This document shows, one piece after another, positions 8,777-43,955 of a stretch of 64,000 nt of DNA. The notes under the pieces are model-generated. The model worked only from the letters and a program-made list of their open reading frames with translations, was not told where the DNA came from and did not search any database. Both the position numbers and the translations under genes were made by a program. Numbering within the stretch: position 1 is the first letter of the stretch; every line of letters begins with the position of its first letter. Origin of the DNA: Thermoanaerobaculia bacterium (GTDB lineage: Bacteria > Acidobacteriota > Thermoanaerobaculia > Multivoradales > Multivoraceae); assembly GCA_963664405.1 (NCBI GenBank), contig OY761158.1, positions 3,936,001 through 4,000,000 on the forward strand, in the 5' to 3' direction.

Positions 8777-8957
8777 TGTCGCACCTTCGCACATATTGCG
8801 ACAAACTGTCGTCTTTCGCCCCTGGGCCAACACGACAGTCCAACGTCTACGGGCCTTTCCGAGCATCGGTGGCGTCTTATGTGGTGGACTACGACACCAC
8901 GGATCGAGCTCTGGGCCGCTGATCCCAACGGGCGACGGGTAAGATGTGGCCAAGTCA
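8777..8957 (+). repeat. Box-site A (boxes at 8777-8803, 8807-8837, 8870-8896, plus downstream promoter-like module)
   Basis: TGTCG...CGACA boxes followed by GATCGAGCT...CTGATCC...GGTAAGATG. Confidence 0.75.
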
Positions 8958-11654
8958 ATGGTTCTAGAAGCTGGCACTCTCCTCGGCCACTACGAAGTGG
9001 TTTCCTCGCTTGGCGCGGGAGGCATGGGAGAGGTCTACCGAGCCAAGGACACGAAGCTCGGACGGGAGGTGGCGATCAAACTCCTGCTCGACGAGGTGTC
9101 CTCTGATCCGCAGCGTCTCGCTCGCTTCGAGCGCGAGGCGCGGGTCCTGGCTTCGCTGAATCACAACAACATAGCCACGCTCTACGGCTTCGAGAAGGAA
9201 GGCGACACCAGCTTCCTGGTCATGGAGCTGGTCGAGGGGGAAACGCTGGCAGAGCGCATCCAGCGCGGTGCGATGCCGATCGACGAGGCGCTGCCGCTCT
9301 TCTTGCAGATCGCCGAGGGGCTTGAGGCTGCTCACGAGAAGGGCGTCATCCACCGCGACCTGAAGCCGGCGAACATCAAGATCACCGACGACCGCCAGGT
9401 GAAGATCCTCGACTTCGGATTGGCTAAGGCCATGGCTCCGGTGGTCGATGCTAGCGATCCGACGATGTCGCAGTCCCCGACACTGACCCTCGCCGCGACC
9501 CGACGTGGCGAGATTCTCGGCACCGCCGCCTACATGAGTCCGGAGCAGGCGGCCGGTAAGACACTCGATAGGCGCACCGATGTCTGGGCCTTTGGTTGCT
9601 GCCTCTTCGAGGCGCTTTCGGGACATCGAGCCTTCGAGGCCGACACCGCTCCGCAGACGGTGGCCAAAGTCCTGGAAAGGGAGCCTCTATGGGAGGCGCT
9701 ACCGCCTACAGTTCCGTCCCCGGTCGAGCGCCTTCTTCGCCGGTGTCTGCGCAAGGATCTTCGGCAGCGCCTGCACGCCATCGCGGATGCCCGGATCGAG
9801 ATCGAGGAGACGTTCAGCGGCTCGGAGGGGCAGGGGTTTGCTGCGCAACCGGCGGGAGGCCTTCGGCTTCGCAAACTGGCCAGTTGGCTCGCAATAACGG
9901 CCGCCCTCGCGTTGGGCACTGGCGCATATCTCGCCAAGAGGTTCTGGGAGACAGCGCCGGCTGTGGAGAGGCCGCCATTAATCCAGTTCTCCCTGGAAGA
10001 GGTGCTCGACCCCGGTCTCGGGCTCTCGATAGACGAGGTCGATCGACCCTCCATCGCGTTCTCATCCGACGGTCAGCATGTCGTCTTTGTGGCGAAATCG
10101 GAGGACGGGATCCGGCGCCTCCACTTGCGCAAACTCGACGAGGTGCGCGGCAGCGAGCTCCCCGGAACGGAGGGCGCCACGACAGCCTTCTTTTCACCGA
10201 ACGGCCAGTGGATCGGCTTCTTTCAGAGGTGGAAGCTGAAGAAGTTGCCGATCGCCGGGGGGACGCCCCGTACCGTCAGCTCAGGGGGCATGTACGGGGC
10301 GAGCTGGGGGCCGGATGACACGATCGTCTTTCCTATCATCGACGTATCCGGCCTTTCGATCGTCTCGGCTCAAGGAGGAACGCCCGAGGTCCTGACGGTT
10401 GTCGATCGGGAAGCAGGCGAGTTCAGTCACCGGTGGCCCCAGTTCCTTCCTGGTGGCCAAGCGATCCTCCTAACTGTGGGCCGTTCCGGGAACTGGGATG
10501 AAGCCGCCATCGCAGTCCATTCTCTAGACACCGGCGAGCGTCACATCGTCATCGAAGGGGGCACACATGCACGCTACTCGCCCACCGGACACATCGTCTA
10601 TGGCCGTGGCGGTCGTTTATGGGCGGTTCCTTTCGACCTCGCTAGCCTCGAAGTGAACGGCCCCTCGGAGCTCCTACTCGAAGGTGTGGCCCAGAGCGGC
10701 TCGAACGGAATGGCCCAGTTCGCTCTGTCTGGTCACGGTTCCCTCGTCTACGCCCCCGGTACGGTGTACACACCAAACCTGCGACTGATCTGGGTCGACC
10801 GACAGGGGAACGCCGAGCCCCTGCCTGCTCCGCCTGGTCGCTATTTTCATCCTCGGCTCTCGCCGGACGGGCGTTCGATCGCCCTTGGCATCGATGACGT
10901 ACCGCCACATATCTGGCTCTACGACATCGCCCAGCAGATGAAGCCGAAGCGGTTCACCTTCGAGTCCTACAACCGCTTTCCTATCTGGACCCCCGATGGA
11001 GTCCACGTGACCTGGGCTTCACCACGAGGTGAGAATCTGCCGGACATCTGGTGGAAAGCAGCGAATGGAGGCGGTGGCTCAGATCAACTCACTCGGAGCC
11101 GGGAGGCCGTTCAAGTTCCCCTCGATTGGGCGCGCAACGGCCAGGTGCTCCTCTTGGACTCGAAGGGCGCTGCCGGAGAGCAAGACATCTGGTCTCTGTC
11201 GCTCGGTGAGGATCCAGCGGTCCAGCCCTTCGTCGCCACTGACGCACTCGAGACCAACGCCACGTTCTCCCCGGATGGCCTCTGGGTGGCGTATCAATCG
11301 GACGAGTCGGGAAGCTACGAGATTTACGTCCAGCCGTATCCCGGTCCGGGAGGAAAGATGCAGGTCTCGAGCGAAGGCGGCAAAAGCCCCGTCTGGTCTC
11401 GCGACGGAAGCGAGATCTTCTTCCGATCCGGAGAGCGGATGATGACTGTTGAGCTCCTATCCTTTGAGCCACTGCCACAGCTAGGAAGACCCAGGGAGCT
11501 GTTTCGTGGGATCTTCTCCGGAGGCTTCGCCTATTTTCGCGGCTACGACGTCTCCGCGGACGGCCAGCGCTTTCTCATGGCACAGCATGCAGATACGGCT
11601 CCGGAGCCCAAGCCGTTGATCGTGGTGATCAACTGGCCCGAGCTACTCGAATGA
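8958..11654 (+). CDS. Hanks-type Ser/Thr protein kinase with TM helix and TolB/PD40 beta-propeller
   Basis: LGAGGMGEVY, VAIK, HRDLKPAN, DFG, GTAAYMSPE; repeated FSPDG motifs. Confidence 0.95.
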   Translation: MVLEAGTLLGHYEVVSSLGAGGMGEVYRAKDTKLGREVAIKLLLDEVSSDPQRLARFEREARVLASLNHNNIATLYGFEKEGDTSFLVMELVEGETLAERIQRGAMPIDEALPLFLQIAEGLEAAHEKGVIHRDLKPANIKITDDRQVKILDFGLAKAMAPVVDASDPTMSQSPTLTLAATRRGEILGTAAYMSPEQAAGKTLDRRTDVWAFGCCLFEALSGHRAFEADTAPQTVAKVLEREPLWEALPPTVPSPVERLLRRCLRKDLRQRLHAIADARIEIEETFSGSEGQGFAAQPAGGLRLRKLASWLAITAALALGTGAYLAKRFWETAPAVERPPLIQFSLEEVLDPGLGLSIDEVDRPSIAFSSDGQHVVFVAKSEDGIRRLHLRKLDEVRGSELPGTEGATTAFFSPNGQWIGFFQRWKLKKLPIAGGTPRTVSSGGMYGASWGPDDTIVFPIIDVSGLSIVSAQGGTPEVLTVVDREAGEFSHRWPQFLPGGQAILLTVGRSGNWDEAAIAVHSLDTGERHIVIEGGTHARYSPTGHIVYGRGGRLWAVPFDLASLEVNGPSELLLEGVAQSGSNGMAQFALSGHGSLVYAPGTVYTPNLRLIWVDRQGNAEPLPAPPGRYFHPRLSPDGRSIALGIDDVPPHIWLYDIAQQMKPKRFTFESYNRFPIWTPDGVHVTWASPRGENLPDIWWKAANGGGGSDQLTRSREAVQVPLDWARNGQVLLLDSKGAAGEQDIWSLSLGEDPAVQPFVATDALETNATFSPDGLWVAYQSDESGSYEIYVQPYPGPGGKMQVSSEGGKSPVWSRDGSEIFFRSGERMMTVELLSFEPLPQLGRPRELFRGIFSGGFAYFRGYDVSADGQRFLMAQHADTAPEPKPLIVVINWPELLE

Positions 11655-11764
11655 TCGGCAAGCGCTTCATTTACCCTGCCCTAGAGTCCACACCCTTCGA
11701 AGCGGCGACACGCAGCGGAGTGGATTGGTTTCCATGTCCGGCAGGCGCTGGCGTGCCATGCTTA

Positions 11765-13769
11765 GGGTCGGCGCGGAAATAAGTTTCCAGTATCTGGGGT
11801 GACCATACCACTGCCCCCTTCTTCAGCCACCGCATAATCCTCCGGTACGCGCCTTGTTTGCAAGGTTTAGAGCTAGCATAGCCCTGCCCGCATTTGGTAT
11901 AGTTTTCCCTGTCACCTCTTTTGGAAGGGGAACTATACCAAATGGTACGAGCCGAAGATCGTGATGCAACAGTGCGCGAGCTCTTGATGAGCGAACAGAT
12001 GGCCACCATGGATGAGCTCAAGGACGCCATGGGAACCCGAGCCACCATGACGGTCTACCGTTCGCTGTCTCGATTGGGCTATTTGGCCAGCTACTCGGAT
12101 CGAGGGCGGTTCTATACCTTGAACGAGATTCCCGATTTCGACGATCTGGGTTTGTGGTCGTGCGGTTCGGCGAGGTTCAGTCGGCATGGCAGCCTCCTCG
12201 AAACTGCGGTGGCTGCCGTGGACCGGTCCGCTGCCGGCTATACGGCTTCTGAACTCGAGCTCCTGCTGCAGGTCGAGGTCAAGCACGCGATGTTGCACCT
12301 CGTTCGTCGCAAGAGAATCGTACGATCCAGAGTTGGGAATAGGTTCGTATACTTGTGCTCGGAAACAGGGCGCCGTCGTCAGCAGAAGCTGATGCGCAAC
12401 GAACGGCAGGCTCTCCAGGATGTAGCTGCCAGCCTCGTTCCAGAAGTGCTCCCCGAGGAGCTCAGGGCTGCCATCGTTTTATTCTTCAGCCTGCTAGACG
12501 AACGCCAGCGGCGGCTCTTCGCTGGCCTGGAAGCGACCAAGCTCGGGCATGGCGGCGACCGGAAGATCGCCGATCTTCTGGACCTGGACCCTCATACAGT
12601 CGCAAAAGGACGTCGCGAGCTCTTCGGCGGCTCCGTGGAGCGCGGAAGAGTTCGAAGAGCAGGCGGTGGCAACCAACGAGTGGAAAAAAAACGCCCGAGA
12701 TAGTCGATGGAATCCATTCCATACTCGAGGCCGATATAGCTGGTGATCCCATGTCATCAAAAAGATGGACGCACGAGACCGCTGCAAAGGTGGCCCAATG
12801 CCTTGCCGAACGCCTTGACATCATCGTATCGGCTACGGTGGTGCGTCGATTGCTCGCAGACCTGAACTATTCCCTCAAGAGCAATAGGAAATGTCTGTCT
12901 TCGGGGAACTCCCCAGATCGTGATGCACAGTTCAAGGCCATCAAGCGACTGCGCGAGGATTTCACAAGCGCTGGCGACCCGATCATCAGCGTCGATACGA
13001 AGAAGAAGGAGCTGATCGGTCGGTTCAAGAACCAGGGACAGACATGGTGCCGCGAGGCCAAGCGGGTCAAGGATCACGACTTCCGGTCCGAAGCTCTCGC
13101 CATCGCCTCCCCCTATGGGATCTACGATCTTCAGAGGAACTTCGGCGTTCTCGTCCTCGGACAGTCGTCGGACACGCCGGAGTTCGCTGTCAACAGCATC
13201 GCGACCTGGTGGCTCAAATACGGTCGATCTCACTATCCGGCGTCTCAGCGTCTCCTCATTCTTGCCGACAGCGGCGCAAGCAACGGCGCACGGCTTCGAG
13301 CCTGGAAGAAGTACCTCCAGGAGAAGCTCGTAGACAAGTGCGGCCTCATCATCACCGTCGCCCACTATCCAACTGGCACCAGTAAATGGAATCCCATCGA
13401 GCACAGGATGTTCAGCGAGATCAGCAAGAACTGGGCCGGAGTTCCTCTCGAGAGTTTCGAGATCCTCGTCAACCTCGTCCGCAACACGACGACATCCACC
13501 GGACTGCGCGTCGAGCCGTGCCGTGATCAACGCCAATACCAGAAAGGAGTCAGGGTATCGGACAAGGAAATGCTGCAGCTCGCGGTGGCCAGGAGCGACT
13601 TCCTAGGAAAGTGGAACTACACCCTCTCGCCGAGACCGCGAACCGAGCAGGAAGAGCTTGCCCCACAGCCTGGGCTCAGCTCACCACCACCTCCAATGCA
13701 GCGACCGCCCTGTGGCGCCTCGGCCTCACACGCTCCGGCGATAATGTGAAGTTATTTCCGCGCCGACCC
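11765..13769 (+). mobile_element. ISAzo13-family insertion sequence
   Basis: 18-bp TIR GGGTCGGCGCGGAAATAA; TTA duplicated on both flanks. Confidence 0.92.
11921..13749 (+). CDS. ISAzo13 transposase, two ORFs joined by a -1 frameshift at A8 (12684-12691); start approximate
   Basis: ORF1 ends LDERQRRLFAG...RRAGGG..VEKK; ORF2 continues AGDP, DRDAQF, ISVDTKKKELIG, HYPTGTSKWNPIEHRMF. Confidence 0.88.
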
Positions 13770-13847
13770 TTAGGGCGGTGTACAGCCAGGCAATCGCGCT
13801 CGCCCACCGGTTCGAAACGCCTCATACACTTTGATTGACGTGAGTGC

Positions 13848-13940
13848 TGTCGCGTTTCCTGGCGCTCTGCGACAGGTATAGCCGAAAGCAGATAACCCTC
13901 TGAGAGAAGGGGCTGTCGTGAAATTCGGTGGATCGCGACA
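13848..13940 (+). repeat. Box-site E (27-bp box / 39-bp spacer / 27-bp box)
   Basis: Boxes at 13848-13874 and 13914-13940. Confidence 0.85.
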
Positions 13941-13956
13941 GTCCACAAACGAGGAC

Positions 13957-14568
13957 TCAGAGCGCTTTCGTCATTCGATAGAACTTCAATGCCGGTATGG
14001 GCAAGCGCTTTGGCCAATGCGACTCGACGGTCATCCCGCGGCGCTCGTAGAATCCGCGGGCTCCCTCGTTCTTGCCTGAGACGTCGAGGGATAATCGAGT
14101 CGATCCACTTGCGCGAGCCCACTCTTCAGAATAGTCCATCAAGACGGCGCCGACGCCAGCGCCGCGAAGTTCTTTATCAACAGCGATGAACTGGATGTAG
14201 AAATCGCCATCGGCAATTGAATCGGTAATCCGCATCATCGGAGCAACCAGTATTTTCACGATCCTCATTCGTAGATGACGCCTACCCGCAGCCCGCTTCA
14301 AGGGTTGGTGCGAGGAACGGCGATGCTGCTCCGCGGTGTACCCCGCGACCATTCCCACGATGACGTCGTCACGTTCTGCGAAGGTCACATTCTGGTAGGA
14401 GAGGTCGTGGTCGGGCTGGGCGAACGCCGTGGCGAGTATGTGCCCGGCGCGGCGACCGAGCCAGAAGCCGAAGAAACCCTCAGCTGATTGGTCGACGTAG
14501 CGGGCGAATACCAGACCCTCTTCGAAGGTGGGGTTGGCGGCCCGAAGGGTTACCGAATGCTGATTCAT
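13957..14568 (-). CDS. GNAT-family acetyltransferase
   Basis: FYIQFIAVDKELRGAGVG, LSLDVSGKNEGARGFYERRG; ATG at 14568. Confidence 0.9.
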   Translation of the reverse strand: MNQHSVTLRAANPTFEEGLVFARYVDQSAEGFFGFWLGRRAGHILATAFAQPDHDLSYQNVTFAERDDVIVGMVAGYTAEQHRRSSHQPLKRAAGRRHLRMRIVKILVAPMMRITDSIADGDFYIQFIAVDKELRGAGVGAVLMDYSEEWARASGSTRLSLDVSGKNEGARGFYERRGMTVESHWPKRLPIPALKFYRMTKAL

Positions 14569-14716
14569 GATTGTCTGGCGAGATGCGACAAGAATAGCTC
14601 GTTCTGAATAAGCCCGCTCAGCGCCGCCGTGTCGTAGTTCTAGGTGAGGTGCGACATCACAATTCGAGCTCTGAGCCGCTGATCCACCGGGCGACGGGTA
14701 TGATGTCGCCAAGTCA
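14564..14716 (+). repeat. Box-site B plus promoter-like module
   Basis: Degenerate box 14564-14590, 39-bp spacer, box 14630-14656, TATGAT before kinase ATG. Confidence 0.8.
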
Positions 14717-17380
14717 ATGGCTCTAGAAGCTGGCACTCGCCTCGGCCACTACGAAGTGGTCTCCTCGCTCGGTGCGGGAGGCATGGGAGAAGTGTATCGA
14801 GCGAAGGACACGAAGCTCGGTCGCGAGGTAGCAGTCAAGCTCCTGCTCGACGAGGTCTCTTCTGACCCGGAGCGTCTAGCTCGCTTCGAGCGCGAGGCGC
14901 GGGTGCTCGCGTCACTCAACCACAAGAACATCGCCAGCCTCCACGCCTTCGAGCGAGAGGGTGACACGGGCTTCCTGGTCATGGAACTGGTCGAGGGCGA
15001 GACGCTGGCCGATCGGATCAGGAGAGGCGCAATCCCGGTCGATGAAGCGTTGCCGCTGTTCGTGCAGGTCGCCGAAGGCCTGGAGGCGGCACATGAGAAG
15101 GGAGTGATCCACCGGGATCTGAAGCCAGCCAACATCAAAATCTCGCCCGACGGTGTGGTCAAGATCCTGGACTTCGGCTTGGCCAAGGCCACTTCGCCAG
15201 ACCTCGATCCGGCCGCCGCGACGTTGTCGAACTCTCCGACGCTGACCCTAGCGGCGACGATGCGAGGGCAGATCCTCGGGACCGCCGCGTACATGGCCCC
15301 CGAACAGGCAAAAGGAAGTCCGGTCGACAAGCGAGCCGATCTCTGGGCCTTTGGCGCGTGCCTCTACGAGGCGATCACCGCGAAGCGCGCCTTCGACGGT
15401 AACGACGCCACCGATATCTTGGGGTCGGTCCTGAAGCTGGAGCCGGATTGGGATGCCCTACCGGCGGAGCTTCCGGACGCGCTGAAGCGAGTTCTGGAAC
15501 GTTGCCTAGCAAAGGACCCCCGTCAGCGGGCCCGAGACGCTGGCGATCTACGCCTTGACCTGGAGGCGGCTCCACGCGAGAAGCTCTCACTGTCGCCTGA
15601 GACTGCGAGGCCCGAGCACTCTCTCGTGCGATGGATTCCATGGCTCGTCGCCGCTGGTGCAATAGCCGTAGTCATCACCCTGATGGCGTCGCGCGACGAG
15701 GCCGAGCCGCAACCGCGTCCTATGACCAGAACGTCGATCGTGCTTCCCCTCGAGGCACCGCTCGCACCTCCGAGCTCCTTCCATCTGGCAATCGGCCGAA
15801 CCTCGTTGGCTCTGGCACCCGACGGCTCCTTCCTCGTTTACGTTGCCTGGGTCGACCACGCTCACCATCTCTATCGCCGTGACATGCGCTCCGGGGAGAT
15901 CACGCCCATGCAGGGGACAGAAGGGGCGCAGGGCCCTCTCTTCTCGCCCGACAGTCGGTGGGTGGGTTTCTTCGCCGACGGGCGACTCAAAAAAGTGCTC
16001 TTGGATGGCGGCGAGCCACAGGTGCTCGCCACCGCGGTCTGGGGTTCTGGCGCTGACTGGGGAAGCGATGGCCACATCTATTTCGCACCGACAGAGGCCA
16101 GCCGGATCTACCGGGTCCCAGAGAACGGTGGAGGCGCAGAGCCCGTCACCGTCTTGCCCAAGGACACGTTCATGCAGACGCATCCATGGCTCTTGCCTGG
16201 AACCCGTGACCTCATCCTCACCAGCCACTCCCAAAGGAGAAGGATTGTGTCTCGTGCGACGGTCAGTTCGTCCGAGGCTCCCTCCCTTCTGCTGGAGCGC
16301 GGCCACGGCGCACGCGTCTCTCCGAGCGGCCATCTGATCTTCATGGACGAAGGGCGACTCTTGGCCGTTGCGTACGATCGTGCCGACAAGAGTGTAGCCG
16401 GCACACCGATAGTGATCCTCGATGACGTGCGGAACGACAGTATGGCTGGACACATGTCGGCGACGTTCTCGAATAGCGGAACGCTGATATATCCGGGAGG
16501 GTCCGATATCTCTAGAGGGCGCTTCGTCTGGGCCGACCGTCAGGGAAATCGAGAACCTTTGAACCTTCCCGTGGCTTCCTACCAAGATTCCGACGTTTCG
16601 CCGGACGGTCGCACAATTGCCTATACCGTTCCCGAGGGTGTGGAGTCTCGCATCTGGGTCTACGACATCGAACGCGGGACAGCACGCCCGCTCACTCCAG
16701 GCTCTGGGCCGTTCTGGTCGAGCGTGAGCGACACCCTCTTCTACACCTCTTTCACCGATGCGGGACCGAGCGTCTGGCGCATCGGGGCCGAGGGCTCAGC
16801 ATCCCCGACGGAGGTTCTGCCTGCCCCGGCGCACCTCCAGACCCTGGGAGAGGTCGGAATCATCTATGACGTTCGCCAAGGCGACGTTTCCTTCGCGCCA
16901 TGGGCAGAGCAACTGGTGGCTGTAGATCTCGACGAGGCTCGACTGATCCTGGCCTCGGAGGCTCAGGAAACTTTCGCCGCGCTCTCGCCCGACGAGCGAT
17001 GGCTCGCCTACATGTCCGACGAGAGCGGTACTTGGGAGATCTATGTCACGGACTTCCCGGAGGCTTCGATCAAGCGCCGGGTTTCTACTGCCGGAGGCGA
17101 AGAGCCCCGTTGGAGCCCGGACGGAAGCGAGATCATCTGGCGCTTCGGCGTGGATTGGTTCTCCGTCGATTTCGACGACGGCGAGGAGATGAAGCTGGGC
17201 GCGCCCATGATCATCCTCTCGGGCCCCTTCATCAACGTCCCGGGGTGGTCCTGGGATTTCTCCCCCGACGGCCGGCGCTTCCTGGTGCTCGAGAACGAAG
17301 AGGCGAGCGAAGCGCTGACCGAGTTGGCCGTCATCCATGACTTCTTCGAAGAGGTCGAGAGGCTCGTGCCCACCGACTGA
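14717..17380 (+). CDS. Ser/Thr protein kinase with TolB/PD40 beta-propeller (paralog of 8958)
   Basis: Same kinase motifs; 5' end nearly identical to the first kinase. Confidence 0.95.
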   Translation: MALEAGTRLGHYEVVSSLGAGGMGEVYRAKDTKLGREVAVKLLLDEVSSDPERLARFEREARVLASLNHKNIASLHAFEREGDTGFLVMELVEGETLADRIRRGAIPVDEALPLFVQVAEGLEAAHEKGVIHRDLKPANIKISPDGVVKILDFGLAKATSPDLDPAAATLSNSPTLTLAATMRGQILGTAAYMAPEQAKGSPVDKRADLWAFGACLYEAITAKRAFDGNDATDILGSVLKLEPDWDALPAELPDALKRVLERCLAKDPRQRARDAGDLRLDLEAAPREKLSLSPETARPEHSLVRWIPWLVAAGAIAVVITLMASRDEAEPQPRPMTRTSIVLPLEAPLAPPSSFHLAIGRTSLALAPDGSFLVYVAWVDHAHHLYRRDMRSGEITPMQGTEGAQGPLFSPDSRWVGFFADGRLKKVLLDGGEPQVLATAVWGSGADWGSDGHIYFAPTEASRIYRVPENGGGAEPVTVLPKDTFMQTHPWLLPGTRDLILTSHSQRRRIVSRATVSSSEAPSLLLERGHGARVSPSGHLIFMDEGRLLAVAYDRADKSVAGTPIVILDDVRNDSMAGHMSATFSNSGTLIYPGGSDISRGRFVWADRQGNREPLNLPVASYQDSDVSPDGRTIAYTVPEGVESRIWVYDIERGTARPLTPGSGPFWSSVSDTLFYTSFTDAGPSVWRIGAEGSASPTEVLPAPAHLQTLGEVGIIYDVRQGDVSFAPWAEQLVAVDLDEARLILASEAQETFAALSPDERWLAYMSDESGTWEIYVTDFPEASIKRRVSTAGGEEPRWSPDGSEIIWRFGVDWFSVDFDDGEEMKLGAPMIILSGPFINVPGWSWDFSPDGRRFLVLENEEASEALTELAVIHDFFEEVERLVPTD

Positions 17381-17383
17381 GGT

Positions 17384-17550
17384 TGTCGCCTTTGCTGGCG
17401 GACCACGACAGGCATAGCTGAAAGTCGATAGGCCCAGAAATACTCGATCTGTCGCACTTCTCGGTGCCTTGCGACACCACAGATCGAGCTTTGAGCGACT
17501 GATCCCAACGGACGACCGGTAAGATGTTGCGAGGTCATGGTTCAAGAAGT
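17384..17550 (+). repeat. Box-site C plus promoter-like module and kinase-start relic
   Basis: Boxes 17384-17410 and 17450-17476, then module ending ATGGTTCAAGAAG. Confidence 0.85.
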
Positions 17551-17600
17551 AGTGCCTTTTCGTCTTCGATTCGGGTGATACCACGATAGGGGAGTAATTG

Positions 17601-19406
17601 ATGACAAGAGTCCGTCGCATTGCCGCGCTGACGGTCGGCGCATTGACTGCCACTTACGCCGCGGGTGCGGAGCGGAACGCCTATTTCGGTGATCTGCACA
17701 TCCATACGCGCTTTTCGTTCGACGCGTTCACCTTCGGCACCCGCGCGACACCCGACGACGCCTACCGTTATGCCCGCGGGGAGGCCATCAAACACCCCGC
17801 CGGCTTCGATATCCAGCTCGATCGGGCGCTCGACTTCTACGCCGTCACCGACCACGCCCGGTATCTCGGCAGGTGGTCGGCGATGATGGATCCCAATCAT
17901 CCTCTGGCGCAGAGTCCTGAAATCCAGCCCTTTTTCGATGCGGAAAAACTCGCCGCAACGGGCCTGTCCCGACAAACAGTCGTCCCCTTCTTCGAGGCCC
18001 ACCCCGACCCGGAGGCCACACGCTCGGCTTGGCGGGAGACCATCGCTTCGGCGGAGCGAAACTACGAGCCGGGCAAGCTCACCACCTTCGTGGGCTATGA
18101 ATACACGCCATCGGCGACCGGTGGGGGCAATCAACACCGAAATGTCATTTTCCGCAGTGCGAAAGCGCCGGAGGTACCCTTCTCTCGACTCGACTCGCCG
18201 AACCCCGAGGATCTCTGGGATTGGCTCGAGGGCTTGCGGGCACAGGGCATCGAGGCGCTGGCGATTCCCCACAACTCGAACCAGAGCGCCGGCCATAAGT
18301 TCGCGCGCCAGAAGAATTCGGGCGAGCCCTTCGACGCGGCCTATGCCCGGCTGCGGATGCGCAACGAGCCACTGGTCGAGGTCACACAGATCAAGGGCAC
18401 TTCGGAGACACACCCCCTGCTCTCGACCAACGACGAGTGGGCGAACTTCGAGATCGAGTATCTCCCCCCCGCCAATAGGAAGCCGGAGTACGTCCGTGGC
18501 AGCTATGTGCGCGATGCCTACCTGACCGGTCTCGAGCTCGAGGAGAACGAGGGGTTCAACCCCTACCGGTTCGGGATGATCGGCTCGAGCGACGGCCACA
18601 ATGGGGGCTCCGCTTATCAGGAGTCGAAGTTCTTCAGCAAGGTCGGTGTCTATGATGCGACGCCGGAGCTGCGCGGCTCTGTGCCCGCGGGGAGTGCTCA
18701 GGCCCGGGGCGACGTCTCACAGCCCACGGGAATGGCTGAAAGGTTGCCAACCTGGGGCGCTTCGGGCTTGGCGGGCGTGTGGGCCGAGGAGAACACCCGC
18801 GAATCGATCTATGACGCGTTCCGCCGCAAAGAGACCTTCGCCACTAGCGGGCCGCGCATCCGGGTGCGTTTGTTCGCCAGCTACGACTTCAAGGGCGATG
18901 CGCTCGAAGACAAGGATCTGATGGCAAAGGCCTACGAGCACGGTGTGCCGATGGGCGCCGATCTCCCGGCCCGTCGCCGCGGCGCACCCCAGTTCCTGGT
19001 CTGGGCGGTGCAGGACCCCGAGTCGACGAAACTCCAGCGCCTGCAGGTGATCAAGGGCTGGATCGAGGCCGGCCGGCCGCAGGAGCGGGTCTATGATGTG
19101 GCCTGCTCGGACGGTCTCGAGGTCGACCGCCAAACTCATCGCTGCCCCGACAACGGCGCCGAGGTGGATCTTGCGGACTGCAGCGTCAGCGCCAACCTCG
19201 GCGCGGCGCAGCTCGAAACTCTCTGGACCGATCCCGACTTCGACTGCCGTCAACGTGCCTTCTACTATGTGCGCGTGCTCGAGAATCCGTCTTGCCGCTG
19301 GTCCACCTGGGATGCACTGCGTGCGGGCACGCCGCCTCGACCCGGTCTTGCGACCACGCTTCAGGAGCGCGCCTTTTCGTCTCCGATTTGGTTGATACCA
19401 CGGTAA
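17601..19406 (+). CDS. DUF3604-family secreted PHP-like metallohydrolase
   Basis: AYFGDLHIHT.FSFDA, LDFYAVTDHA, QHRNVIFR, IPHNSNQS, QIKGTSETHP, QERAFSSPIW. Confidence 0.9.
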   Translation: MTRVRRIAALTVGALTATYAAGAERNAYFGDLHIHTRFSFDAFTFGTRATPDDAYRYARGEAIKHPAGFDIQLDRALDFYAVTDHARYLGRWSAMMDPNHPLAQSPEIQPFFDAEKLAATGLSRQTVVPFFEAHPDPEATRSAWRETIASAERNYEPGKLTTFVGYEYTPSATGGGNQHRNVIFRSAKAPEVPFSRLDSPNPEDLWDWLEGLRAQGIEALAIPHNSNQSAGHKFARQKNSGEPFDAAYARLRMRNEPLVEVTQIKGTSETHPLLSTNDEWANFEIEYLPPANRKPEYVRGSYVRDAYLTGLELEENEGFNPYRFGMIGSSDGHNGGSAYQESKFFSKVGVYDATPELRGSVPAGSAQARGDVSQPTGMAERLPTWGASGLAGVWAEENTRESIYDAFRRKETFATSGPRIRVRLFASYDFKGDALEDKDLMAKAYEHGVPMGADLPARRRGAPQFLVWAVQDPESTKLQRLQVIKGWIEAGRPQERVYDVACSDGLEVDRQTHRCPDNGAEVDLADCSVSANLGAAQLETLWTDPDFDCRQRAFYYVRVLENPSCRWSTWDALRAGTPPRPGLATTLQERAFSSPIWLIPR

Positions 19407-19627
19407 AGCGTGGGCCTGAGTCAGGGTTTCCTCGAAGCGGCACCCACGCTTGACTCGGGCAGAGTCGGCACTGTGAGCGGGCCGCAGTGCCGGGTTGTCG
19501 CCGCCTCCTTGTTCTTGTGGATGTTGCGGAAGTCGGAGGTCTTTATGACCCCCATGAATTCGCGCAAGCTGGGGTAGCGCACGATGTGGAGGCGCCAGGA
19601 TGGGCTCTATCTCCCACCGACCGATGG

Positions 19628-19720
19628 TGTCGTGATTCCTGGCGCTCTGCGACAGGTATAGCCGAAAGCAGATAACCCTCTGAGAGAAGGGGCTGTCGTG
19701 AAATTCGGTGCTTTGCGACA
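19628..19720 (+). repeat. Box-site F
   Basis: Boxes 19628-19654 and 19694-19720; 75 bp identical to site E. Confidence 0.85.
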
Positions 19721-19767
19721 GCTCCGAATCAGCTAGCGAGGGCTAGCGATAGACTTGCGCCTACTCA

Positions 19768-19845
19768 ATGGCGCTAGAACCAGGCACACGCCTCGGTCCC
19801 TACGAGATCGTCGAGCTGCGCGGGAAGGGCGGCATGAGAGAGGTC
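19768..19845 (+). pseudogene. N-terminal remnant of a third Ser/Thr kinase
   Basis: MALEPGTRLGPYEIVELRGKGGMREV, after which similarity is lost. Confidence 0.8.
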
Positions 19846-26674: not shown

Positions 26675-26833
26675 TATTTTCACCCCACGGCCACGACGAG
26701 AGTCCAACATCTACGGGCTCTAGCGAGCACCGCTGTCGTCTTCTGTGGTGCCTTGCGACACCACAGATCGAGCTTTGAGCGACTGATCCCAACGGACGAC
26801 CGGTAAGATGTTGCCAAGTCATGGTTCAAGAAG
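26672..26833 (+). repeat. Box-site D (A-like left part, C-like right part)
   Basis: Box 26734-26760; upstream resembles 8807-8882, downstream resembles 17463 onward. Confidence 0.8.
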
Positions 26834-28951: not shown

Positions 28952-29085
28952 TGTCGTGATTCCCGGCGGTCTGCGACACGCATAGCCGGAAGCAGATAAG
29001 CCTTCGAGCAGAGGTGTTGTCGTGAAATTCGGTGCTCTGCGACAGCACAGGTCGAGCTCCGATCCGCTGATCCCACGGGCGAGGC
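28952..29085 (+). repeat. Box-site G
   Basis: Boxes 28952-28978 and 29018-29044, 39-bp spacer, partial downstream module. Confidence 0.85.
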
Positions 29086-35474: not shown

Positions 35475-35515
35475 CTGACCGCTTTGCGTGGAATGTGCCC
35501 TTCAGGAGGCAGACG

Positions 35516-36437: not shown

Positions 36438-36512
36438 AGCCGGGAGCCCGGGAGCGGTAACCTCCCAGGCCACCCGGCTCGATATGGGCGACACGACGCC
36501 TTCTGACGCCCG

Positions 36513-36970
36513 CTACCTCGACACCAGGTAGGTCATCTTGACGGCCAGCTGCCGATTCCGCAGCCACGGCACACCGGGCACGTCCATGCGCAGCTCGTCG
36601 TAAGCGACGTAGATGTCACTTCCCGGGCTGTAGATCCAGTTGAACCGGACGCTCGTGCTCACCCCAGACGTCGAGGAGTTGTACTGCGACAAGGTGCGCA
36701 GGGTCATCCGCGGCGACAGCGCCAGATCGAAGCGGAGCAATGCAAGGTCGGCGACGAACGCGCCCCCCGGCAGCTCGACGTCGCTCCGCAGGAACGCCGC
36801 CTCGGCCGCGACCGAGCTCGTCGCCCGCAACCCGATGGTCGCCTCGATGTCGATCCGCGTGCCGTCGAAGAACGTCTGGGGGGAGTAGCGAAGCCGGCTA
36901 TAGACGCGGCGCGATGGATCACTGGTGTACCGAAAGTTCCATTCGCCGAAGCGATAGGTGCTCGATGCAG
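36513..36970 (-). pseudogene. C-terminal fragment of a DUF5916-like outer-membrane protein
   Basis: QYNS..SVRFNWIYSPGSDIYVAYDE..RQLAVKMTYL. Confidence 0.7.
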
Positions 36971-36978
36971 AGCCGTTT

Positions 36979-37371
36979 TTAACTTCCATAACCTTCTCCA
37001 AGTTGATAAGACATTTTTTGAAATAATGTATGATTATACTTTGTATCTGTTCTATGTAAGTAAAGCGACTGCCTTTGAATTTGAGCTCCCAATTCTTCCC
37101 AGTCTTCATTTGAATTCGGGATAAAGATTTTTAGAAATTTTCCATTGAGCTGGTAGGCTCTAAGGGTCTGGGGGTATAAATCAGGAGCCTGTTTGAAATC
37201 TAAAGTTTCAACCACCGGTACTACAAAAGTGTAGTCCGGGCATTCACCATTCACTTTAAAACCAGACCTGAATTTATCCCAATCTCCCTTTGGCCAGGCA
37301 TCTTTACTCCAGTCCGTCAGTTTATTCAGGACTTCACAATTAACACCCAGCTCTGCCATTAAGGGAATCAA
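36979..37371 (-). pseudogene. Low-GC foreign gene fragment
   Basis: Abrupt AT-rich patch with different codon usage. Confidence 0.4.
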
Positions 37372-37471
37372 TCGATATAAATGATCTGCATGACGCTGTG
37401 GACTACTTACAAAGCCAATGAGCCTGACTCCTGAATCCTTGCTCCAGTCGCCTTTCCTTCGCGAAGATGCT

Positions 37472-40697: not shown

Positions 40698-41388
40698 GTG
40701 CACAGATCATTGACTGGCCTCATCTTCATCGCACTCGCGTGTGGGCACCTTGCCTGCACCGAACCTCCCGAGCAAGTGCCCTCGCCGACCTCGGGCACGC
40801 CCGCAGCCGAGCGGCCGAACTTCGTCATCATCTTTGCCGACGATCAGGGCTATGGCGACCTGGGGGCCAGGGATCATTCCGCCGGGACGAGTGACCTCCG
40901 AGGTCGCAACCACCATGGATCTCCTACCCACCTTCATCACCATGGCTGGCGCTTCCCTGCCCGACGACCGCACCCTCGACGGCCATGACATCTCACCGCT
41001 CTTGTTGGGCGAACCTGACGCCGAGAGCCCGTACGAGGCCTTCTACTATCACACCGAGACCCATCTCGATGCGGTGCGCAGCGGGCCGTGGAAGCTCGTC
41101 TTCCCGCGCCCCGGTCGTGACGATGCCGAGTGGCTCGTGTCGAAGAGCGGGAACTTCCTCGGCGAGATTCTGCGGCCGGTAGAGGAGCTCGAGCTCTACA
41201 ACCTGGAAGACGATATCGGCGAGAGTCACAACCTGCGAGACCTCCATCCCGAAGTGGTGGCTCGTCTCGAGAGACTGGCGGAATCGGCCCGGCAGGAATT
41301 GGGCGACTACGACCGCATCGGCAAGGGGGTGCGGTTTTTCGAAGATGGGCCTAGGTGGCCGCGGCGACAGAAGTGGATCACCCACTAG
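40698..41388 (+). pseudogene. Arylsulfatase with large internal deletion
   Basis: RPNFVIIFADDQGYGDLG joined out of frame to PGIIPPG..MDLLPTF..AVRSGPWKL..LYNLEDDIGE; catalytic CxPxR absent. Confidence 0.85.
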
Positions 41389-41597
41389 GGGAGCGCGAAG
41401 GCCACGAGCTGCGCTTTCTCTGTCTGGTCGCCGAAAAGCGCCCTCGAAGTACCAGACCCGCCGCCGGCCGGCACGACGATGTACTGGCGGCCCTGGTGCA
41501 TGTAGGTCATCGGCACCCCGTGTAGGGTGGCCTCCGTCTCCACCTCCGCCAGCACCCTGCCGGTCGCTTTGTCGTAGGCCTGAAGGATGCTGCCGCT
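41385..41597 (-). pseudogene. C-terminal fragment of a PQQ dehydrogenase (not in ORF track)
   Basis: Reverse strand reads LQAYDKATGRVLAEV..GVPMTYMHQGRQYIVV..LVAFALP*. Confidence 0.8.
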
Positions 41598-41687
41598 TGC
41601 CCGACGGGTGTCACGGCGGACGACATTCGATTCGTCGCGTCAAACGGCACTGTTCCCGGTCTTGGATGTCAGGGGTTTGGGCCCCCA

Positions 41688-42004
41688 ATGGCGAGCGGCC
41701 CCGTGACGGTGCGTGGGAAGAACCGAGCCCTCCCCCTAAAGGCGGAAATCTTCGACGATGGCTTTGAAATTGAGGGTGGAGACATTGTCGCCCCACCCGT
41801 GATCCAGGTCCTCTTTGATTCCGGTGTCGGCGGAGCGCTCGACGTGACCGGTGAAGCCCTGCCCTCTGGTCAGGGAACCGACGGCAACCAGTTTGAATTC
41901 ACGACAAGCGGAATCTGGCAGTTCAACCTGAAGACGAAGAATCACACCGCGGCGGGTACCTATACGGTCACGATGGAGTCAGGCGACGATGCCGAGTACG
42001 GCAT
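41688..42004 (+). pseudogene. PxKF-like Ig domain fragment interrupted by IS
   Basis: ALPLKAEIFD...WQFNLKTK..GTYTVT. Confidence 0.5.
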
Positions 42005-42044
42005 CGGAACCTGTCAAGAACTTTGAGACACCTTGAGTCATAAA

Positions 42045-43049
42045 TTAGTGAAGGTCCTCTTCGGTCGAGGCCGGCGGATCCTCAGGCCGGTTGATATAAA
42101 CGGTTCCAGGTAAAGGCGCGACGATGGGTCGCCCTCGGAGGAAGCGTTCTGGGTGAGTTTGGAAGGCGCCATCGAGCGCGACTTGCCGTGCGGCAAGGAC
42201 CTGCTCCGCTCGACCGTGGTGGACGCCGTGCGGCGTCAGGTGGGCGATCCCACCGTGGCGGTGCTCGGTGTTGTACCAAGGGAAGAAGGTCCTGCAGAAA
42301 GCCTGGGCGGCCTCCTGGCTGGCGAATCGGGAGGGGAAGCTCGGGTGGTACTTGAGGGTCTTGAACTGGGCCTCGGAAAAGGGGTTGTCGTCACAGACCT
42401 GGGGCCGGCTGAGCGACTGAGTGAGTCCCAGATCGGCGAGCAGCTGAGCCGTGCACTTGGCGGTCATCGGGGAGCCCCGATCGCTGTGCAGGGTGAGCAC
42501 CTCAGGTTTGACGTCGTGCTTGCAGCAGGTCTCCTCGATGAGGCGACCGGCGAGATTGGCGTTCTCGCGGGGCGCGAGCATCCAGCCGACGACGTAGCGG
42601 CTGAAGATGTCGAGCAGGACGTAGAGGTAGTAGTAGCTCCACTTCTCAGGACCCCGCAATCGGGTGATATCCCAGGACCAGACTTGGTTGGGGGCGGCCG
42701 CCACCAGCTCCGGCTTGGTGTAGTCGGGGTGGCGAAGCTGGTTACGCCGTTCGCGCACCGGCGCTCGCGCAGCGAGGATGCGGTACATGGTCCTCTCCGA
42801 GCAGAGGTAGCGTTGCTCGTCCAGGAGCGTGGCGACGACCTCGGCGGGGGCACGGTCGACAAAGCGAGGCGAGTCCAGGACGCCCAGGACGGCTTGGCGC
42901 TCGTCCTCGCTCAGAGCCCGGGCAGGTGTTGGCCGGGGCTGCGGCCCGGTAGATGGCTTCCGACGACGGTACAGGGTCGCCCGTGCCACGCCGAGAGCGA
43001 CACAGGACGGCTTGACGCCGACCTGCAGCGCCAATTCGGCTGCGGCCAT
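42045..43049 (-). CDS. IS3-family transposase OrfB
   Basis: PNQVWSWDIT, LDIFSRYVVGW, LHSDRGSPM, DNPFSEAQFKTLKY. Confidence 0.93.
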   Translation of the reverse strand: MAAAELALQVGVKPSCVALGVARATLYRRRKPSTGPQPRPTPARALSEDERQAVLGVLDSPRFVDRAPAEVVATLLDEQRYLCSERTMYRILAARAPVRERRNQLRHPDYTKPELVAAAPNQVWSWDITRLRGPEKWSYYYLYVLLDIFSRYVVGWMLAPRENANLAGRLIEETCCKHDVKPEVLTLHSDRGSPMTAKCTAQLLADLGLTQSLSRPQVCDDNPFSEAQFKTLKYHPSFPSRFASQEAAQAFCRTFFPWYNTEHRHGGIAHLTPHGVHHGRAEQVLAARQVALDGAFQTHPERFLRGRPIVAPLPGTVYINRPEDPPASTEEDLH

Positions 43050-43585
43050 CAGGAGCTCCTCCCGTCCTCGAGGTTGAAGCCCAGCAGCCCGGCAACTTTT
43101 CCCTGCACTTCGAGGATCAGCTCTGCCTTGCGCAGCGCCTCGCGAGTACGGGATAGCTCCTTTTCCAGTTGCTCGACCTTCTTGGCCAGCGGATTGCCGG
43201 ACTTCGCCTTGCGCCCTCGCCTTCGGCCCAGCCTTCGCAGAGCGCCGGTCCTGCGTGCCCTGCGCCAGGCCGTCAGGTGGGAGCTGTACAATCCCTCGCG
43301 ACGCAGGATCGCGCCGATGTCGCCAGGCGTGGCCACTTCGACTTCCTCGAGGATTCGCAGCTTGTACTCGGCCGTGAAGGTTCGCCGCGTTGGCTTGGCG
43401 ACCACCTCAGGATCCAACACAGGGCTCGGCCGCGCCCAGATGGCGCACGCTGCTGCGTCTCCGTGCTCGCTACGCTCGCCCGTCGGCGCCTCCGCGGACC
43501 CCAGCTGGGCGCACGGGGGAAGCTGGGAAACCTCCTCCTCGCCCCGGACCGCAATGGACGTGCCTGCTGATCTCATCTCTTGCAT
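43049..43585 (-). CDS. IS3-family transposase OrfA (start uncertain)
   Basis: RRTFTAEYKLRIL, GAILRREGLYSSHLTAWR; TGATG coupling to OrfB. Confidence 0.85.
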   Translation of the reverse strand: MQEMRSAGTSIAVRGEEEVSQLPPCAQLGSAEAPTGERSEHGDAAACAIWARPSPVLDPEVVAKPTRRTFTAEYKLRILEEVEVATPGDIGAILRREGLYSSHLTAWRRARRTGALRRLGRRRGRKAKSGNPLAKKVEQLEKELSRTREALRKAELILEVQGKVAGLLGFNLEDGRSS

Positions 43586-43821
43586 CTTCCTCTCTTCAGA
43601 CATCAGGTTTCACCTCTCCGCCCTACTCTATTTAAGGGGTGGCGAGATGTCTCAAGCATCTTGGCAGAGAGGGCATCGACCCAACGTGTACCGCAGTGTT
43701 CATCGTCGAGTAGAGGCCTGTCTTCCGACTCTAGAACAGAGCCGATGCCCAAGTGGGATTCGGCCCTCTTTCTTGGTGCGTCAGGCAGTAAGTCCTGGAT
43801 AAGCGACGAAGATGCTCGAGA

Positions 43822-43955
43822 TGCACCTTTCCTAGTGGAAGGTGCAATGGACAACATCGTCAGTGTCGTGAAATCTGGCGAGGTGCGACACGTATAGCCG
43901 GAAGCGGATAAGCCTCCGGTAACGCTGAGCTGCACCTCTTCTAGTGGAAGGTGCA
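43822..43955 (+). repeat. Box-site H flanked by two TGCACC-N13-GGTGCA palindromes
   Basis: Box 43864-43890 with conserved spacer; palindromes at 43822-43846 and 43931-43955. Confidence 0.75.

Follow-up and report, generated by a model that had tools for sequence, protein, structure and literature searches.

Genes and boxes in the window

The window, that is, the whole stretch of 64,000 nucleotides (64 kb) analysed here, belongs to a Thermoanaerobaculia bacterium (GCA_963664405.1, contig OY761158.1, positions 3,936,001 to 4,000,000). It carries an array of genes separated by 27-bp inverted repeats, called boxes, with the pattern TGTCG-N8-GGYG-N5-CGACA. The centre is GGCG in box 1 and GGTG in box 2. 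The main features are listed below.

8777..8803, + strand: head box 0, TGTCG-N17-CGACA without GGYG centre, first subsite of the array head; it opens 8 heads genome-wide
8808..8838, + strand: head box 0b, 31-bp TGTCG-N21-CGACA, 4 bp past box 0
8870..8896, + strand: head box 2, GGTG centre, left arm TGGCG (one mismatch), 93 bp from the start of box 0
8897..8945, + strand: conserved leader from box 2 to the kinase start codon, GATCGAGCTnTGAGCCGCTGATCC...GGTAAGATGT..., repeat families D7 and D8
8946..11654, + strand: Ser/Thr kinase with PD40 beta-propeller repeats, putative cassette gene, 902 aa, one of 30 paralogous array ORFs
13848..13940, + strand: double box; box 1 13848-13874 (GGCG), 39-bp linker with ATAGC-N9-ATA, box 2 13914-13940 (GGTG)
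13957..14568, - strand: GNAT acetyltransferase, putative cassette gene in reverse orientation, start set at ATG 14568
14564..14656, + strand: double box; degenerate box 1 14564-14590 (GGCG and right arm retained, left arm lost), intact box 2 14630-14656
14717..17380, + strand: Ser/Thr kinase-PD40, putative cassette gene, 887 aa
17384..17476, + strand: double box; box 1 17384-17410, box 2 17450-17476
17598..19406, + strand: DUF3604 protein, putative cassette gene, 602 aa
19628..19720, + strand: double box; box 1 19628-19654, box 2 19694-19720
26678..26760, + strand: head-like remnant (partial box 0b) and box 2 26734-26760, opening a second DUF3604 copy
28952..29044, + strand: double box; box 1 28952-28978, box 2 29018-29044
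43864..43912, + strand: lone box 1 (43864-43890) with the start of an ATAGC-N9-ATA linker, without box 2

Eleven exact boxes are present in the window (starts at 13848, 13914, 14630, 17384, 17450, 19628, 19694, 26734, 28952, 29018 and 43864), all of them on the + strand, and none appeared in 100 dinucleotide-preserving shuffles. When up to two mismatches were allowed, 18 boxes were found versus a shuffle mean of 2.03. The box pattern described by the first-pass annotation of this DNA is therefore non-random in the window, and the single direction that it ascribed to the cored boxes holds for all the exact ones. It had also reported GGCG and GGTG boxes paired exactly 39 bp apart at five loci, and these pairs were found again (13848/13914, 14564/14630, 17384/17450, 19628/19694 and 28952/29018), the box 1 at 14564 having a degenerate left arm with TTCAT for TGTCG.

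Two details had to be corrected. The spacer, given as ATAGC-N8-ATA, has no match in the window; its true form is ATAGC-N9-ATA (equal to ATAGC-N8-[GA]ATA), with seven matches, six of which start 3 bp after a box 1 while the seventh (16473) lies within a kinase gene. Moreover, the site at 8777, counted as an ordinary box locus, is instead a 120-bp head of three boxes: a 27-bp core-less one, a 31-bp one and a box 2 with one mismatch. The heads of four arrays (A, B, W and H) retain box 0b, as does the related genome G008.

The close abutment of genes and boxes was observed as previously described. The kinase at 14717-17380 finishes 3 bp ahead of box 17384, the GNAT stop at 13957 is 16 bp past the box 13914-13940, and the likely GNAT start codon (CAT at 14566-14568) is within the degenerate box 14564-14590. 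On the 3' side of the double box 19628..19720, the 5' end of a kinase is truncated by an IS (rve transposase, 19940-20968). The repeat family of the head-like remnant (D10) matches 8814-8957 at 81%, and the lone box at 43864, the final box of the window's array, is located beside an IS3-like element.

Boxes and arrays across the genome

A scan of the genome and its relatives, proposed at the first pass, gave 88 exact boxes in the whole genome, 77 of them outside the window, versus 0 for the reversed-pattern control. The earlier claim that boxes do not occur outside the island is thus right within the window and wrong for the genome; among 40 relatives, G008 alone has box-like sites. TGTCG-N17-CGACA is found at 118 genomic sites, compared with 6-32 at other spacings and 1-14 for control words (counts halved, since each palindromic site had been scored on both strands). 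The genomic arms are TGTCGY...RCGACA, with TGTCG, GGYG and CGACA invariant in exact boxes, and the inner arm positions are weakly and asymmetrically conserved, which differs from classical core sites.

The boxes are inverted repeats that all point in the direction of transcription, and 10 of 16 distinct linkers carry a short GC-rich hairpin. These features would suit structured RNA or single-strand hairpins (terminators, processing sites or REP-like elements). Nevertheless, positions 6 and 22 vary independently (TA 11, TG 10, CA 17, CG 16 and CC 1 of 55), inner positions pair in just 16-37 of 55 with no covariation past the 5-bp arms, a terminator-like T run is absent, and an Rfam search gave no match at E<=1. 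End or termination sites of IS91-like rolling-circle elements were considered together with hairpins, given a 2.6-kb element (IS91-type Y2 transposase and tyrosine recombinase) present in five copies, four of them in or beside arrays and one within a linker. However, the IS ends adjoin CCTTA in the linker and not the box centre. The 13 Y1_Tnp (Y1 transposase) matches all lie away from the arrays, which speaks against REP/RAYT or IS200/IS605. Hairpins or IS91-like ends are therefore most unlikely as an explanation of the boxes.

Genome-wide, the boxes fall into about eight groups, with a single orientation per group. All 27 mixed box pairs closer than 80 bp run from box 1 to box 2, 19 of them at 66 bp start-to-start. 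The boxes separate 30 Ser/Thr-kinase-PD40 paralogues and many unrelated genes, which encode a methyltransferase, an MFS transporter, DUF1326, an extra sigma-70, a Na/H exchanger, a zincin, an amidohydrolase, PLD, a cupin, DUF3047, DUF3604 and GNAT. Most cassettes consist of a paralogous kinase gene and its own leader, and the arrays have therefore grown in part by tandem duplication. The comparison of the genome's heads showed no gene common to their upstream side.

Regarding the position of boxes relative to genes, the gap between the end of box 2 and the following ORF measures 58-61 bp in 13 of 30 cases. Such a fixed distance of about 60 bp before the next start codon would be consistent with boxes that a dimeric DNA-binding protein uses as operators or upstream activating sites to control the kinase genes jointly, the arrays having grown by ordinary duplication; this protein could be a recombinase-like protein acting as a mere repressor. 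The 120-bp head, with several boxes that share one arm motif at varied spacings upstream of first genes, and the presence of head-like modules upstream of other genes in another genus point in the same direction. However, box 1 adjoins gene 3' ends, with 23 of 46 cases beginning 1-13 bp past the stop codon of the preceding gene, and regulation as the whole explanation of the boxes is considered rather improbable, also in view of the results that follow.

Crossover signature at the box centres

Among 3828 site pairs, the left flank was at least 90% alike in 8 and the right flank in 29, and in none were both flanks alike. Sites 28161 and 759557, for example, are 100% identical as far as TGGCG and 27% identical past it. 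In the box 1 pairs alike in the right flank only (n=8), identity was at background (12-50%) at box positions 6-13 and 75-100% at positions 18-22, and the pairs alike in the left flank only (n=8) showed the reverse profile. The left half of a box follows the DNA upstream of it, the right half follows the DNA downstream, and similarity changes over in the GGYG centre, at positions 14-17, which is a signature of site-specific crossover.

Furthermore, of the 10 ends of the duplicated segments of the genome (non-IS, >=300 bp, 93% identity; n=5), 9 are located within a box in one or more copies. One of these units, of 3.8 kb and 99.7% identity, has two box 1 centres as its limits. In the window, the DUF3604 unit, from box 2 centre to box 1 centre, has its second copy at 26747-28965, and the 97% repeat shared with 26747-26837 (family D8) starts at 17463, which is the GGTG centre of box 2. 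Operators give no account of a flank homology that switches exactly at the box centre, nor of duplicated units that end in boxes. Logan contigs, in which the organism is present at about 5-8x and which break at repeats, showed no recombination products, circles or rearrangements between strains.

A candidate tyrosine recombinase

The statement of the first-pass annotation that no cognate recombinase is evident in the window is right for a box-linked enzyme; the window does contain a P4-type island integrase (45845-47119) and several transposases. The search for recombinase genes that co-occur with the boxes, also suggested there, led to a family of tyrosine recombinases of about 175 aa encoded beside them. 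In this genome (G000) the only intact gene of this catalytic-domain-only, Xer-like protein is located at an array tail outside the window (G000:5456065-5456598). Its open frame starts 8 bp after the box 1 at 5456690, and the gene start is within about 90 bp of the box. In addition, a gene fragment with 78% identity is found 30 bp past the end of the box 1-like site 782905, and a C-terminal fragment 217 bp upstream of head D. Among the 40 relatives, only G008 encodes a specific homologue, about 310 bp from a box 1-like site, so that site and enzyme co-occur within two related genomes.

The protein matches PF00589 with 102 bits and has no counterpart of the N-terminal core-binding domain present in Xer, Cre and IntI. 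R43, K67, H127, R130, H153 and Y162 are invariant in eight aligned family members, including the G000 protein; that every recombinase catalytic residue is retained also counts against a mere repressor bound to operators. The scores are below the cut-offs of the specific models: 68.4 bits for TIGR02249 (cut-off 265), 47 bits for PRK15417 (cut-off 435), 94 bits for XerC (cut-off 335) and 93 bits for XerD (cut-off 330).

In metagenomes, the family comprises 879 proteins at E<=1e-15, labelled only as XerD-like. A set of 80 metagenomic loci (428,721 bp) encoding homologues with 55-92% identity contained TGTCG-N17-CGACA 42 times, versus 0 for two control words and 0-3 at other spacings, and 28 of these loci have a box less than 700 bp upstream of the recombinase gene. 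The consensus of these boxes is TGTCGCYTTCT-N5-AAAAnRCGACA, an 11-5-11 inverted repeat. Many of the loci are plasmid-like, on replicons that also encode ParA, ParB and RepA. In these relatives, one box overlaps a promoter-like -35/-10 pair (TTGCGT-N17-TACAAT), which favours operators and indicates that box binding may serve regulation there. Hence, the operator alternative already raised at the first pass may describe a second role of the boxes.

The association with a tyrosine recombinase also bears on a reading in which a serine resolvase or invertase (Tn3, Sin or beta type) would use the boxes as res-like sites. The first-pass analogy with Sin/beta sites stands as to layout: as in res, several dimer-sized subsites with varied half-site spacing are present within about 120 bp (head boxes of 27, 31 and 27 bp), there are two subsites, 39 bp apart, at the junctions, and the TGTC of the arm presumably resembles a resolvase half-site. 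The analogy fails as to the enzyme, since the boxes are associated with a tyrosine recombinase and have no resolvase as a regular neighbour. Among 12 Resolvase-domain matches in the genome, one was found within 160 bp of a box: a small resolvase gene (6509415-6510104) that finishes 160 bp from the last box of array H. It is the only one of four small resolvase genes near a box, and it lies beside an IS21-like transposase. No TGTCG-type sites were found upstream of the resolvase genes, and no resolvase was found among the annotated recurrent neighbour clusters of the box-linked metagenomic loci. Besides, a 2-bp crossover centred on the dyad would not suit a site of odd length (27 bp). Serine resolvase sites are thus very unlikely.

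The ends of the duplicated units, the half-box switch and the co-occurrence of motif and enzyme in the 80 loci argue for the first-pass proposal that the boxes may be site-specific recombination sites delimiting cassettes. The same co-occurrence suggests that the protein of about 175 aa could be the cognate enzyme that cuts them.

Comparison with known recombination systems

The arrays resemble integrons in being co-oriented, in their mostly single-gene cassettes of diverse functions, in having a site at the gene 3' end and a distinct platform or head per array, and in the linked tyrosine recombinase. The attC sites of integrons are 57-141 bp long, carry RYYYAAC/GTTRRRY boxes and fold as single strands. 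In contrast, the sites described here are 27-bp inverted repeats of double-stranded type (TGTCG...CGACA) in which GTTRRRY ends were not seen, and the enzyme, of about 175 aa without N-terminal domain, scores far under the integron-integrase cut-offs. Other differences are the junctions with two sites of different centres, the leader carried by most cassettes, the number of arrays (at least eight per genome) and a recombinase gene inside or at the tail of an array instead of divergent from the head.

The dif/Xer site consists of 28 bp, with an 11-bp XerC arm, a 6-bp centre and an 11-bp XerD arm. The boxes belong to the same size class (27 versus 28 bp) with 11-bp arms and a short centre, and their 11-5-11-like scheme is set beside the Xer 11-6-11 scheme by layout only. 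The first-pass annotation had stated that the boxes match neither attC nor dif, which agrees with the absence of GTTRRRY ends and with the arms that it described as unrelated to dif. The pdif sites alternate in orientation, unlike the cored boxes of an array, which are all in direct orientation. Passages from two articles describe dif modules (pdif sites, XerC/XerD) on Acinetobacter plasmids (PMC13141974, PMC6449649); there, as here, the sites bound discrete gene modules found shuffled between replicons, and a passage from a third describes IS elements that target the site neighbourhood (PMC10132070), a further likeness. The present system differs in its chromosomal location, long arrays, two site classes and conserved linker, and in the separate minimal recombinase linked to it instead of the host XerC/XerD.

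The boxes are also similar to Xer and Cre core sites in their inverted arms, their short asymmetric centre and the homology switch between positions 13 and 18, and the candidate enzyme has the R-K-H-R-H-Y catalytic residues of this class. Cre/loxP and ResD/rfsF are plasmid multimer-resolution systems in which a tyrosine recombinase has its site adjacent. The metagenomic homologues likewise adjoin a presumed site on ParA/ParB/RepA replicons, whereas here the site has spread to 88-118 chromosomal copies that bound cassettes, and Cre and ResD are about twice as large as the present enzyme.

Proposed mechanism and implications

Sequence comparison leads us to propose, with a probability of about 60%, that this is a chromosomal cassette-shuffling system, which would work like integrons or dif modules and be a member of neither. 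Each box would be a 27-bp core recombination site with two inverted arms of about 11 bp (outer TGTCGY conserved) and a short asymmetric centre between them, TGGCG in box 1 and GGTG in box 2, most likely recognised by the small catalytic-domain-only Xer-like recombinase. On plasmid-like replicons, the one to three boxes beside the homologue are probably a multimer-resolution site doubling as operator. In this genome the sites would have multiplied and now bound gene cassettes in at least eight co-oriented arrays, the proposed order being a head (box 0, box 0b, box 2) followed by repeated leader, gene, box 1, 39-bp linker and box 2.

Strand exchange within the centre could have moved or copied units between arrays, each unit starting in either a box 1 or a box 2 and ending in a box 1. 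The two centres would be heterospecific, box 1 pairing with box 1 only and box 2 with box 2 only, and a gene between box 2 and box 1 would consequently be safe from deletion while exchange is still possible. We infer that the system is still active. A more complete version is possible, although tentative: an undescribed cassette system based on a minimal recombinase of about 175 aa borrowed from plasmids, with 27-bp heterospecific GGCG/GGTG sites and modules exchanged among at least eight arrays, which would shuffle around 30 sensor Ser/Thr kinases and accessory genes as an independent invention of the integron idea.

To our knowledge, the formation of single-gene cassette arrays by site-specific recombination has been well studied only in integrons and, more recently, in dif modules. 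If the proposal is true, this would be a third such system, with an unusually small and different recombinase, a double-site junction and sensor kinases as main cargo as new traits, and cassette shuffling would have evolved more than once. Should the site classes be truly heterospecific, enzyme and sites could provide a compact cassette-exchange tool. Finally, the proposal would assign a role to the 175-aa recombinase family that is widespread in metagenomes and would account for the presence of 30 tandem kinase-PD40 paralogues in one genome.

Box sites in the window and along the genome

The exact 27-bp box, TGTCG-N8-GGYG-N5-CGACA, occurs 11 times in the window, on the + strand every time, and never in 100 dinucleotide-preserving shuffles; when up to two mismatches are allowed, the window holds 18 matches versus a shuffle mean of 2.0. 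The first-pass annotation had described boxes paired exactly 39 bp apart, box 1 with a GGCG centre followed by box 2 with a GGTG centre, and genes abutting them tightly. Both descriptions agree with the present data, the pairing at five window loci. At locus 14564, box 1 is found without its left arm. The linker motif, given previously as ATAGC-N8-ATA, actually reads ATAGC-N9-ATA, and the 8777 locus, previously listed as one more site of the same kind, differs from the rest, being a 120-bp head of three boxes, in which a 27-bp box lacking the core comes first, then a 31-bp TGTCG-N21-CGACA box and finally a box 2.

About 10 of 16 distinct linkers form a short hairpin of high GC content in their second half (for example, window 13892-13913 and 19672-19693). 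The stems differ in sequence (CGCCG/CGGCG, CCCCG/CGGGG and CCCTCT/GAAGGG, among others), the mean z is -1.3, and the opposite strand behaves similarly. Moreover, the lone box 1 at 43864 has TAGTGGAAGGTGCAA-like repeat words on both sides (window 43833-43998) and lies beside an IS3-like element (42045-43603); these repeats are possibly IS ends.

Concerning the genome as a whole, the window is a piece of one 6.78-Mb contig, and the earlier statement that no cored boxes were found outside the island is true of the window only: the genome carries 88 exact boxes (55 GGCG and 33 GGTG) versus 0 matches to the reversed control pattern. The less specific pattern TGTCG-N17-CGACA gives 118 sites, versus approximately 1-32 for other spacings and control words; the N17 spacing counts were halved, as the pattern equals its own reverse complement. 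A sample of 400 genomes from the class yielded no double box.

Arrays and their cassettes

The boxes are clustered in about eight arrays, each of a single orientation and all opening with the same three-box head. Wherever a box 1 and a box 2 lie within 80 bp of each other, box 1 comes first (27 of 27 pairs), with a start-to-start distance of 66 bp in 19 of the 27; one additional close pair consists of two box 1 sites. The upstream stop codon lies 1-13 bp before the start of box 1 in 23 of 46 cases, and the end of box 2 is followed by the next ORF after 58-61 bp in 13 of 30, while at some junctions box 1 stands alone and the next gene follows directly.

Thirty ORFs located between boxes belong to one family, Ser/Thr kinases with PD40 repeats. 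Unrelated cassette genes, a few of them in reverse orientation, encode GNAT, DUF3604, methyltransferase, MFS transporter, DUF1326, a third sigma-70 paralogue, Na/H exchanger, zincin, amidohydrolase, PLD, cupin and DUF3047 proteins. The first DUF3604 copy in the window is intact (602 aa); the second (window 26887-28730) is broken into two ORFs, 26887-28245 and 28101-28730. The genome holds three full-length RpoD-like sigma-70 paralogues with 65-74% identity, one of which is an array C cassette flanked by two box 1 sites, and another is found in the second island of the window:

RpoD-like sigma-70 paralogues (G000, the source genome, is numbered along its whole length)
window 51919-53607
G000 771143-772834
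G000 3477312-3479009

Probable exchange at box centres

Comparison of the sites with one another revealed that the left half of a box tracks the DNA upstream of it and the right half the DNA that lies downstream. Among 3828 site pairs, at least 90% is shared over the left 100 bp in 8 and over the right 100 bp in 29, and both flanks are shared in none. Sites 28161 and 759557, for instance, are identical through TGGCG and show 27% identity past that point. In the eight box 1 pairs with only the right flank in common, identity stays at a background of 12-50% over positions 6-13 and reaches 75-100% over positions 18-22; the eight with only the left flank in common give the mirror image of this profile. 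Box 2 pairs follow the same pattern (35 right-only, 3 left-only, 0 both).

Duplicated segments point to the same position. Five duplicated segments, IS excluded, with a length of 300 bp or more and at least 93% identity were counted within and between arrays, and boxes contain nine of their ten ends in one copy or more. The duplicated units include:

Duplicated units with ends in boxes
3.8 kb, 99.7% identity: between successive box 1 centres
873 bp: between two box 1 sites
582 bp: starts at a box 1 centre
DUF3604 of the window, high-identity block: from box 2 centre (17463/26747) to approximately the box 1 centre

Boxes make up about 1% of the sequence of the duplicated regions, and the words common to them are shorter than homologous recombination requires. 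These breakpoints are most simply explained by exchange at the box centre.

Public sequencing data were also considered. In the Logan contigs of runs X7, X8, X10 and X12 over window 8700-26700, the organism is present at about 5-8x among others; these contigs end at repeats, and none of the 15 joints listed (there are 106 further ones) is a box-centre joint. Contig L062, of a near relative, has 87% DNA identity to the source genome at the recombinase described below, the similarity starting about 15 bp upstream of box 1; a clean break at the box was thus not observed in this one contig.

Other readings of the boxes were weighed against exchange. If they acted as RNA hairpins or REP-like elements, the variable inner arm positions could represent compensatory changes, but the full count over 55 + 33 boxes shows none: the two halves lack covariation past the 5-bp arms, and positions 6 and 22 combine freely. 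A role as sigma-54 or sigma-70 promoters, or as terminators, was discarded because the spacing does not fit and a consensus scan of the junctions was empty. Given the lack of covariation, of an Rfam match for the boxes and of a promoter or terminator consensus at the junctions, the RNA hairpin or REP-like reading is unlikely.

A candidate recombinase and its relatives

The first-pass annotation had proposed a search for a recombinase co-occurring with the boxes. The genome has 25 tyrosine-recombinase matches, and a single box-linked one stands out, adjoining box 1 at the tail of array G:

G000 5456065-5456682: candidate recombinase, 206-codon open frame, probably 174-178 aa

Its frame starts 8 bp after box 1, and a box 2-like site then follows; the 175-aa protein itself is assigned to G000 5456065-5456598. 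Past the tail of array C, a recombinase fragment with 78% identity follows a box 1-like site at a distance of 30 bp from its end, and a C-terminal fragment is located 217 bp upstream of head D. Judging by its sequence, the candidate protein is the catalytic domain of an Xer-like recombinase and nothing more. It is matched best by XerA_Arch (117 bits, below the cut-off of 220) and by the catalytic domains of XerA and XerD with solved structures, and all catalytic residues are conserved.

Among 40 relatives, a specific homologue was found in G008 only (53-75% identity, frameshifted, about 310 bp from a box 1-like site), and no other relative carries convincing boxes and head-like modules. A sample of 400 genomes from the phylum contained no homologue at E<=1e-21. 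Metagenomes supplied a large and uniform family of 879 proteins at E<=1e-15, with a length of 175 aa in nearly all of the 120 best, and the site co-occurs with the enzyme family there. In 80 homologue-encoding loci (428,721 bp), TGTCG-N17-CGACA appears 42 times, versus 0 for two control words and 0-3 for other spacings, and 28 of the 80 have a box within 700 bp upstream of the recombinase gene, at least 300 bp of upstream sequence being present in 70. A weight matrix built from the metagenomic sites gave 106 matches versus 1 in shuffled sequence, counted on both strands, so palindromic sites may count twice. The consensus, TGTCGCYTTCT-N5-AAAAnRCGACA, has the form of a tyrosine-recombinase core site, an inverted repeat in an 11-5-11 arrangement.

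Judging from their neighbouring genes, which encode ParA-like proteins (18 loci), RPA-family RepA (10 loci), ParB, HicAB and SocA, many of these loci look plasmid-like. Each group of boxes there has two or three members inside about 120 bp and ends with a box that overlaps a promoter-like TTGCGT-N17-TACAAT, an arrangement suggesting that the group may serve in multimer resolution and also act as an operator. TACAAT or TATAAT occurs in the box closest to the recombinase operon, and TTGCGT precedes it by 17 bp in the adjoining half-box:

Promoter-like pairs inside boxes (metagenomic loci; others exist)
L139 3571-3692
L071 5195-5316

An integrated plasmid was considered and rejected, no RepA (PF10134) being found in the genome.

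Islands and mobile elements

The surroundings of the window array look like two integrative islands in tandem at tRNA-Ala, whose 59-bp 3' end is present in three direct copies (90-100%). The box array begins 240 bp inside the outer island.

Features of the tRNA-Ala region (window)
8479-8537, 45671-45729 and 54918-54976: copies of the tRNA-Ala 3' end
54927-55002: tRNA-Ala(GGC)
45845-47119: P4-type integrase, Arm-DNA-bind_3 and Phage_integrase domains

A tRNA-Sec gene is located at window 60757-60856. The IS at window 11764-13438 (ISAZ013-type transposase, 12355-13749) is present in a high number of copies, with a contig depth of about 120-250 across four public runs versus about 5-8 for neighbouring unique sequence.

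Furthermore, a 2.6-kb element encoding a tyrosine recombinase (286-316 aa) and an IS91-type Y2 transposase has five copies, four of them in or beside box arrays:

2.6-kb IS91-type element (G000, outside the window)
34789-37391
41380-43976
596846-599449
615110-617712
887165-889767

Its right end abuts CCTTA or CCATA in four of the five copies, and one copy divides a 40-bp linker between box 1 and box 2 into 22 + 18 bp. As its ends abut the linker CCTTA and not the box centre, it was rejected as the agent of exchange and kept only as an IS targeting the linker. A resolvase near array H was also discarded: it lies beside an IS21-like transposase, has a paralogue elsewhere and shows no TGTCG-type sites upstream.

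Relation to known systems and proposed mechanism

The literature searched contained no description of the boxes, the 175-aa recombinase family or the kinase cassette arrays. The system would work like an integron, yet without attC and without IntI, or like the dif modules of Acinetobacter plasmids (PMC13141974, PMC6449649). The boxes, though, all face the same way within an array instead of alternating, and the box-linked enzyme is neither XerC nor XerD. In these defining features the box system departs from integrons and dif modules alike. Regarding the analogy with Sin/beta-type res sites drawn earlier, the boxes do share the arrangement in several subsites, but a linked serine recombinase is lacking.

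The sites, their arrays, the central breakpoints and the co-occurrence of site and enzyme family are direct observations; in the mechanism proposed to account for them, the 175-aa recombinase would bind the box arms and exchange strands in the centre. Tyrosine recombinases such as Cre, Flp and Xer require identical overlap regions; hence, box 1 (TGGCG) should pair with box 1 only and box 2 (GGTG) with box 2 only. Pairing of this kind would protect a gene between box 2 and box 1 from deletion by its own flanking sites, and the gene could still swap between arrays through two exchanges. Alternatively, it could travel within a unit that spans from one box 1 to another. Units of both kinds, box 2 to box 1 and box 1 to box 1, were observed duplicated. 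The boxes may also have a regulatory role, in addition to exchange or instead of it.
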